15,828 nt of DNA, from the IMG/VR virus record IMGVR_UViG_2700989170_000009. One strand, written 5' to 3'. Under the pieces are notes generated by a model. That model was given only the letters and a program-made list of their open reading frames with translations, did no database searches and was not told where the DNA came from. Positions 7,813 through 8,970 of the stretch are shown piece by piece. The DNA comes from a virus (taxonomy: Duplodnaviria > Heunggongvirae > Uroviricota > Caudoviricetes). How positions within the stretch are numbered: the first letter of the stretch is position 1; each line of letters opens with the position of its first letter. The translations under genes were made by a program, and so were the position numbers.

Positions 7813-8970
7813 TTAATCGTCGTCTTCCGGCAGTGCCAGAATCTTGATCGCGTTCGAATCCACCACGCCACCGCCTAAATATTTTTGCGTGAAAATTTTG
7901 ATGAATCCTGGTTCTGTCAGGTTGTCCGGTCTGGTGCGAACACCTGTTTCGTGATCAACAATGTAGTAACCGCGTTTGAAGTCACCCAGGGCAATAACGT
8001 TATCAGGCATAAACTCCAGATATTCGACCGGAAGGCCCAGCAACGTATCAGGATCACCCGCCTGTAAACGGTCGCGCCAGATATAATCACCGTTCGCGTT
8101 CTTCACCTTCTGAAGTTTTGCCGCCGTCGTGGAGTTAACCACTCAGACCGCGTTTTTGCGGTATTTTTTACGTAATGCAAATTTCAGGTCGATCAGCGGG
8201 TCCGCAGATGTCCACGCCAGAGATTCGGAAGGTTTAATTACCTGCAACGTACCAAAATCACGCTCTTTGTCGTTCTTCTCTGCACGGGGTACGGATAAAA
8301 AACCTTTTGCTTTTTTGTCACCGTCGCCCACAACCAGATCGCTTTCTTCGGTTTCCGTGAAGGTGTCGCCAATCTCACCCGTCAGCCATGAAAGGATGTC
8401 CACATCGGAAAAATCCACGATTTCCTGTGTGGTGCGCGGGTACGCATAGACCGGATACAGCTTAATGCTCACCTCGTTAATCTGCGGGGTGCTGGTCTGT
8501 TCGCGTGCCTTACCCTCTTCACCGTGGTTAACGGTCGCACCGCCAGCGGAAACAAGCTGCTTAAACTCGTTGCTGCTGATTTTCTTCACGGTACAGATGC
8601 GACGCATGGTGGATTCATCCGCCAGCATTCGCATGATTTCGGTGTTCAGTTCAGGGATAACGGTATAACCACCATCAGCGGGAACGCCTGTACTTAATGC
8701 GCGGGTTTCACCGGTCAGAATGTAGTTACGTAGTTCTGCGGGGTCAGTGGTCTGGCTGCTTTTACCTGGCTTGCTGCGCTCTTCGTCTGCAATGGCTTCA
8801 AGGCGGGAAATGTCTTTATCGAGGGATTCAGCTTTAGCGCGTAATTCGTCAAATTTTGCGCCCTCAGCATCGTTAAGACTGCGGTTTTCTTTTTCAGCGT
8901 TCTCCAGCATGTCGCGCATCTGATTTTTAATGGCGGTTTTCTGCTGGCGTAATTCGATTATTCTCTGCAT
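7813..8970 (-). pseudogene. Major capsid protein, HK97 fold with N-terminal delta (scaffold) domain, interrupted by an in-frame TGA at 8145-8143
   Basis: Two same-frame ORFs (8146-8970 and 7813-8142) separated only by TGA. Together 385 codons, the size of an HK97-type capsid protein. N-terminal coiled-coil delta domain (MQRIIELRQQKTAIKNQMRDMLENAEKE...), C-terminal GDFKRGYYIVDH-type ending. Likely true start is ATG 8970-8968 rather than the GTG at 9018. Confidence 0.8.

Follow-up and report, generated by a model that had tools for sequence, protein, structure and literature searches.

The DNA analysed here (hereafter the window) is a stretch of 15,828 nucleotides from the viral record IMGVR_UViG_2700989170_000009. 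Pfam searches, together with tblastn comparison against the copy in Escherichia coli O157:H7, gave the following order of island genes: integrase, alpA, a DUF4222 protein, D5_N primase, capsid, S78 protease, portal, head closure, head-tail connector, HNH, a 60-aa gene, P27-family terS and terL (Table 1). [quoted passage not shown] The left module is likewise of PICI type, with an integrase (409 aa), AlpA (PF05930) and a D5_N/DUF5906 primase. No tail family appears among the Pfam matches on any called gene, and the span from the integrase to the last gene, 13.6 kb (2258-15828), lies in the satellite size range of 13-15 kb. A functional cf-PICI encodes all proteins for its own capsids and for self-packaging; here the capsid gene is interrupted by a nonsense codon (W276*) and terS is devoid of start codon and ribosome-binding site. 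To judge from gene content and order, the element is a cf-PICI by descent, but a degenerate one.

Table 1. Features of the island, with positions in the window.
Feature	Position	Strand	Remarks
Large terminase, 553 aa, intact	2553..4214	-	
terS remnant and 98-bp deletion junction	4198..4620	-	GTG at 4509 is the first start still usable; junction at N gap 4553-4595
HNH endonuclease (146 aa) and 60-aa gene between hnh and terS	4640..5243	-	Both intact, 100% aa identity to O157 copy; 60-aa gene is the orthologue of EDL933 gene 1792 by gene order
Head-closure and head-tail connector genes	5243..5933	-	Head-closure gene crossed by N gap 5607-5723; intact in L010
Portal protein, 403 aa, intact	5930..7141	-	98% aa identity to O157 orthologue
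HK97-family prohead protease (S78)	7146..7773	-	N gap 7235-7324 in the window; locus L010, identical and without gaps, has the full-length gene (190 aa)
Terminator-like hairpin just 3′ of the capsid gene	7782..7803	-	Consensus scan only
Capsid codons 277-385 and TAA	7813..8142	-	Untranslated or at best reinitiated; 109-aa protein according to gene callers
In-frame TGA, codon 276	8143..8145	-	From TGG (Trp), coding-strand G>A at 8143
Capsid codons 1-275	8146..8970	-	N-terminal fragment: residues 1-92 (removed at maturation) and first ~60% of the Pfam capsid domain
SSB-PerC chimera, 53 aa	9274..9435	-	Left by ~490 bp deletion
Primase/replication protein (D5_N, DUF5906), 582 aa	10314..12062	-	
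alpA, PICI activator, 62 aa	14036..14224	-	100% identical to O157 copy
Tyrosine integrase, 409 aa	14599..15828	-	

The window is a draft with gaps, as had been stated in a preliminary description made from its sequence: it contains three runs of N (4553-4595, 5607-5723 and 7235-7324), none of them near the capsid lesion. The runs do not preserve length. In gap-free loci, 38 nt of the protease gene take the place of the 96-nt span that contains the 90 N; 117 N stand for 59 nt of the head-closure gene, and 43 N cover overlapping contig ends. That the protease and head-closure genes look truncated in the window is an artefact of the assembly. A possible accessory gene is the ORF of 248 aa (13232-13978, minus strand) that separates alpA from the replication module; it is called in all Shigella flexneri loci and has no match in Pfam or PHROG. 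The window (9230-9252) and genome CP004057 each have one copy of a 23-bp sequence that resembles a terminator hairpin, CAGCCGGAGCAATCCGGCTTTTT. Six other S. flexneri loci have two copies, which flank a 340-bp cassette with a 74-aa ORF (L004 7340-7760), and this cassette is an insertion/deletion polymorphism within S. flexneri.

On the minus strand, positions 8970 to 7813 translate as an HK97-type major capsid gene of 385 sense positions and a terminal TAA. Retranslation bears out, in coordinates as in description, the single TGA at 8145-8143 to which attention had been drawn in an otherwise continuous frame of 385 codons: it is the sole internal stop of the frame and occupies codon 276 (...KKYRKNAV*VVNSTTAAK...). 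A GTG directly 3′ of the TGA opens the 109-aa remainder. Residues 100-274 of the 275-aa product match positions 1-166 of the 280 of Pfam Phage_capsid (PF05065; E = 3e-29), and the 109-aa remainder matches positions 169-278 (E = 1e-23). The two halves thus match consecutive stretches of PF05065, so that one domain has been cut in two at about position 167 of 280; together they span positions 1-278, which places the protein in the HK97-fold capsid family. For comparison, an intact homologue (P0002) scores 208.6 bits against the PF05065 cut-off of 24.2. The earlier impression that both halves are genuine capsid sequence is therefore confirmed by their separate PF05065 matches and by their collinearity, with no indel, with intact 385-aa genes of E. 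coli.

The ancestral state of codon 276 is apparent from these intact genes. When the region was compared by megablast with 5,426 complete E. coli genomes, 361 of them gave a match, at up to 98.6% identity; every match listed carries the annotation of an intact "phage major capsid protein" with an HK97-family prohead protease after it. Three E. coli loci with 385-aa capsid genes (L001-L003) align base for base with the window gene, at 98.2-98.6% nucleotide identity and with no indels. The sense codon at the position of the stop, which the preliminary description had left to be identified from intact homologues, is TGG (Trp) in all three, and the window differs from it by a coding-strand G>A transition at 8143. 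Conservation at the protein level was assessed with 120 cluster representatives (66-99% identity) listed from a search of 5.8 billion proteins and aligned with MAFFT. Trp276 is invariant in all 120, within a conserved block K-Y-R-K/R-N-A-V-W-V-M/V-N-S. An eventuality considered at the outset, namely that the capsid protein naturally ends at codon 276 and is followed by a separate gene, does not hold, since the homologues are single proteins of 380-410 aa in which this Trp never varies. The bases flanking the TGA are the same as in Trp-encoding alleles, and the 109 codons downstream are still open, with no excess of amino-acid changes. W276* is a true nonsense mutation in the genuine major capsid gene of a phage satellite.

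Downstream of the stop, the sole cluster of amino-acid changes is found at codons 379-382 (window 7825-7835), where 4 nucleotide differences from E. coli alleles occur within 12 nt and result in A379 for E and E382 for Q. A small patch of recombination, or an allelic difference confined to this spot, could account for the cluster.

Gaps in a draft raise the question of whether the TGA is an artefact of assembly or base calling, the true genome having TGG. The presence of the three N gaps, and of low-quality bases at the contig ends at 4553-4595, would be in line with such an error; the nearest gap is nevertheless more than 800 bp away from codon 276, and the same TGA is found in 8 independently fetched loci. 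Carriers include four contigs of 4.5-4.6 Mb (CP004057, CP026810, CP026799 and CP182556), to which are added the drafts AFHB01, AFHD01 and WACK01 and one ENA metagenome scaffold. N gaps aside, window and CP004057 agree at every position of the island part 4597-15828; three positions at which they differ fall in 1-4552. The exact 275-aa product occurs in 3556 index blocks of public assemblies, on at least 1000 contigs; at every place fetched for this product, gene calling gives a capsid of 275 + 109 aa, and the source names listed for both capsid fragments are all Shigella flexneri. Recurrence of the same TGA in many independent assemblies means that it is neither a base-calling error nor a mutation private to the window isolate. 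The suggestion of a base-calling error in a gapped draft accordingly fails in the face of the same truncated product on at least 1000 contigs, among them four of 4.5-4.6 Mb, and in a metagenome assembly, and we give the artefact a negligible probability.

Outside S. flexneri the allele was searched for in several ways. Among 185,579 species-representative genomes, the TGA-containing 53-mer was found only in S. flexneri SFBU1023, and none of the 349 complete E. coli genomes that carry this 61-mer stretch matches it exactly with TGA or TAG at codon 276. As a positive control, a 100-mer with TGG gave exact matches, and 300 records at ≥99% identity. Neither the TGA nor the TAR versions of a 40-mer gave a match in IMG/VR. 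Conversely, the S. flexneri allele with Trp restored is absent from a collection of 15 billion proteins. The 8 loci, the contig counts and the missing restored allele together suggest that the stop is fixed in S. flexneri. TAT at codon 296 was considered as an S. flexneri marker by which an intact ancestor might be recognized, and was discarded because E. coli genomes have that haplotype with TGG.

Some relative dating of the stop is afforded by two S. flexneri genomes, CP026810 (L006) and CP026799 (L008), which have diverged from the window by about 0.15-0.25% across the locus and both carry the TGA. Within S. flexneri the capsid gene shows only two synonymous differences: codons 81 and 123 are CGC in these two genomes, as in E. 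coli, and CGT in the window lineage. Since the TGA is common to genomes that keep the E. coli-like CGC at both codons, the nonsense mutation is older than at least two later substitutions. By this reasoning it was present in the common ancestor of the window lineage and of these two genomes, and has been vertically inherited. Of the "recent nonsense mutation" originally proposed, the nonsense mutation stands, and its recency does not, as it predates two synonymous substitutions in the same gene. The related idea that the satellite is freshly inactivated is equally unsupported, given a stop common to S. flexneri genomes 0.15-0.25% apart, the absence of the intact allele from the collection of 15 billion proteins, and the two companion deletions described below.

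With Trp restored, the protein aligns over all 385 residues with PDB entry 9GYI ("Major head protein", 385 aa; E = 2.5e-253), with five differences besides the stop; 9GYI has W at position 276. This entry is the cryo-EM capsid model of EcCIEDL933, the prototype cf-PICI, whose shell is a T=4 HK97-fold particle of 47.5 nm and whose mature capsid protein starts at residue 93 (10.1101/2025.02.11.637232). In the prototype capsid, the substitutions K290D and E319K abolished transfer and D295K reduced it, and R345 was also targeted (10.1101/2025.02.11.637232). The equivalents of K290, D295, E319 and R345 all lie downstream of codon 276, in the part lost from the S. flexneri protein. When the packaging-module genes of EcCIEDL933 were mutated one by one, transfer was abolished in every case except gene 1792, and replication was unaffected (10.1101/2022.09.08.507074). 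In S. flexneri, translation is expected to end after residue 275, in the middle of the Phage_capsid domain, with loss of about 40% of the Pfam domain. The island would then be deprived of its own T=4 capsids and would not spread as a cf-PICI particle; it may still excise and replicate, and, in the absence of a proper terS start, it is probably unable to initiate packaging. Because knock-outs in the prototype abolish transfer, capsid production and transfer are most likely lost in S. flexneri, and the claim that the element can no longer make its own capsid is, by analogy with the EcCIEDL933 knock-out phenotype, well founded.

This consequence presupposes that the stop is not bypassed. One way around it would be a functional split capsid, in which translation, having ended at the TGA, starts again at the GTG next to it, and the products of 275 and 109 aa assemble into the HK97 fold. 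The position of the GTG immediately after the TGA, and the fact that gene callers report both pieces, are what such an arrangement would look like; however, no Shine-Dalgarno-like sequence precedes the GTG, and the break falls within a single Phage_capsid domain. In an AlphaFold model of an intact homologue, which is of low confidence (mean pLDDT 50, about 70 locally), residues 274-278 are predicted to form a beta-strand between two predicted helices, so that residue 276 itself would lie within a strand. Moreover, single charge changes are enough to impair the prototype capsid, no homologue has a natural split at codon 276, and two of the 109-aa calls elsewhere come from unrelated lesions (see below). 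A working split capsid is thus improbable in the extreme.

Readthrough deserves somewhat more attention. Of the three stop codons UGA is the most prone to leak, and tRNA-Trp, which reads it as a near-cognate, would put the wild-type residue back. To our knowledge, TGG to TGA is the one nonsense change for which natural near-cognate suppression restores the wild-type protein. Leaky or programmed readthrough of the UGA might then supply enough full-length capsid for low-level mobility, and the open downstream frame of 109 codons, with no excess of amino-acid changes, is what it would require. Nevertheless, the stop itself is not conserved: Trp stands at this position in all 120 homologues listed and in all 349 complete E. 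coli genomes with the stretch. Its flanks are unchanged from those of Trp alleles, so that no readthrough signal has evolved, and the 63 nt that begin with the stop form a fold no more stable than those of shuffled versions (z = -0.32). An Rfam scan of the window yielded no family at its gathering score, and neither a SECIS element nor another stimulatory structure was recognized downstream of the stop; the window contains no tRNA genes, and promoter and terminator scans returned nothing relevant to the stop. A T=4 shell has 240 subunit positions, for which synthesis at the percent level seems unlikely to suffice, and the island is in addition without a terS start. Neither programmed readthrough nor selenocysteine recoding is supported by these sequence features. 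Traces of full-length protein made by misreading of UGA by tRNA-Trp are possible, whereas mobility sustained by readthrough is, in our estimation, quite unlikely.

The capsid stop is accompanied by two deletions, both identified by comparison with the EcCIEDL933-type element of O157:H7 (L012) and with the element of E. coli O22:H8 (L001). The first, of 98 bp, lies between the short repeats CCCGACCCCGCC and AAAGCCCCCGCC and takes away codons 1-7 of terS, including the ATG, together with the ribosome-binding site and 83 bp of intergenic DNA lying upstream. In what is left, the earliest canonical start in frame (ATG, GTG or TTG) is a GTG at native codon 16. In the window this junction (4536-4620) coincides with the N gap at 4553-4595, where two contig ends overlap and read as the deletion junction. 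When the S. flexneri terS junction was compared with a spread sample of E. coli matches, 11 of 11 full-coverage matches fell in two pieces about 98 bp apart, which indicates that the 98 bp are still present in those genomes. The cohesive-end site of HK97-type phages is located immediately upstream of terS, and the 98-bp deletion may also have removed the cos site of the island. The second deletion, of about 490 bp, is in frame and joins residues 1-25 of SSB to the last ~30 residues of PerC, the PerC part of the chimera matching positions 50-77 of the 90 of Pfam PerC.

W276*, the terS deletion and the ssb-perC deletion are all three present in 7 of 7 full-length S. flexneri loci. The remaining packaging genes are full length, with 95-100% amino-acid identity to the O157 copy, and the decay is therefore shallow. 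Pseudogene accumulation is well known in Shigella, and the picture of a decaying, multiply crippled cf-PICI remnant is in keeping with it. In all, it is highly probable that the window holds a cf-PICI of the EcCIEDL933 type, situated between roxA and phoQ in Shigella flexneri, which has inherited W276* and is in decay. In one S. flexneri genome (CP026810, L006), an IS1 transposase fragment is found in the regulatory module and terL is split into 371 + 183 aa (L006 3719-4012 and 12582-14242); decay is continuing in some S. flexneri lineages.

The persistence of the element, with most of its genes intact, across S. flexneri could also be read as exaptation, the truncated capsid or the crippled island being kept for a benefit to the host, for example by poisoning the assembly of infecting HK97-like phages. 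The N-terminal fragment does keep residues 1-92, which are normally cleaved off at maturation, and satellites commonly interfere with their helper phages. On the other hand, the authors of the EcCIEDL933 study found cf-PICI and helper packaging to be independent and mutually exclusive, with an island that does not block its helper. There is no sign of selection, in a gene whose two synonymous differences within S. flexneri give no power to test for it, and the low diversity of S. flexneri accounts for retention without selection. Exaptation therefore appears highly improbable. The broader proposition that the stop represents a functional state, be it a capsid kept "nearly off" with rare reading by tRNA-Trp or a fragment blocking the assembly of HK97-like phages, is itself very unlikely. 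If true, W276* would stand for rare mobility or phage defence rather than mere decay.

The interpretation of the island as a decaying cf-PICI can be set against known systems. EcCIEDL933 of O157:H7 strain EDL933 (10.1101/2022.09.08.507074) has the same gene order as the S. flexneri island, from int, alpA and primase through to terS and terL, and the packaging module of S. flexneri shows 95.7-97.6% DNA identity and 95-100% protein identity with the O157:H7 copy. Unlike EcCIEDL933, the S. flexneri island carries W276*, the 98-bp terS deletion and the ssb-perC fusion, and it is predicted to be non-transferable. The two also differ in integration site (roxA/phoQ in the S. flexneri island, tqsA in O157) and in replication module, the S. 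flexneri primase being only 47% identical to that of O157. Another relative is found in E. coli O22:H8 RM10809-3 (NZ_CP023165, L001), where an intact cf-PICI occupies the same roxA-phoQ site and shows 97.7-99.2% DNA identity to the packaging module of the S. flexneri island. In contrast to the latter, it has TGG at codon 276, an intact terS start and separate ssb and perC genes, and a RepA-helicase replication module takes the place of the primase. HK97 gp5 and the capsid protein of the Rhodobacter gene transfer agent (PDB 6TB9, 6TBA) share with the cf-PICI capsid the HK97 fold and proteolytic removal of the N-terminus. An alignment with the gene transfer agent capsid extends over residues 73-379 (E = 1e-46) and pairs W276 with another aromatic residue, Phe. 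The cf-PICI shell is set apart from these systems by its T=4 geometry without covalent cross-links, and the S. flexneri gene by its truncation.

A published description of this pseudogene was not found, and the three papers found to mention both cf-PICIs and S. flexneri report only homologous elements there. Public annotations have long listed the two capsid fragments as separate proteins. The type of island is already known, and its S. flexneri member is a degenerate one, the product of ordinary Shigella gene decay. For annotation, the two genes labelled "bacteriophage protein" or "capsid" in S. flexneri genomes are to be treated as one pseudogene. The S. flexneri copy should not be counted as a mobile satellite, a point of some relevance since cf-PICIs have been proposed to cross species boundaries by means of different phage tails. 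It represents a natural knock-out of capsid and terS, apparently fixed in a major human pathogen, and could possibly serve as a clonal marker for S. flexneri and as a ready-made negative control for cf-PICI transfer.

C-terminal capsid products of 109 aa with the same start residue are also recorded under E. coli names (P0018) and in the clusters P0017, P0151 and P0159. The idea of a recurrent W276* hot spot was rejected, as the DNA for P0017 and P0159 shows different lesions: one locus (L013) has an upstream frameshift with the TGG intact, and in five others (L016-L020) a TAG lies six codons upstream of the conserved Trp. P0151 is encoded on a contig (L015) in which nearly all island genes are fragmented. 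These products have the length of 109 aa in common because gene callers begin the second gene at the first start that follows the upstream fragment. The five loci with TAG belong to a different cf-PICI lineage, located between a PQQ dehydrogenase gene and a phosphoribosyltransferase gene (L016 8164-9330). As in the S. flexneri island, the capsid gene of this lineage is cut by a single in-frame stop in a module that is otherwise intact, a state found on 23 contigs. The C-terminal 109 aa of its capsid are, however, only 74% identical to those of S. flexneri, and the stop is TAG. A different element with a different stop argues for an independent event, and the possession of its own nonsense codon by this lineage indicates that capsid knock-outs of cf-PICIs are not unique to S. 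flexneri.
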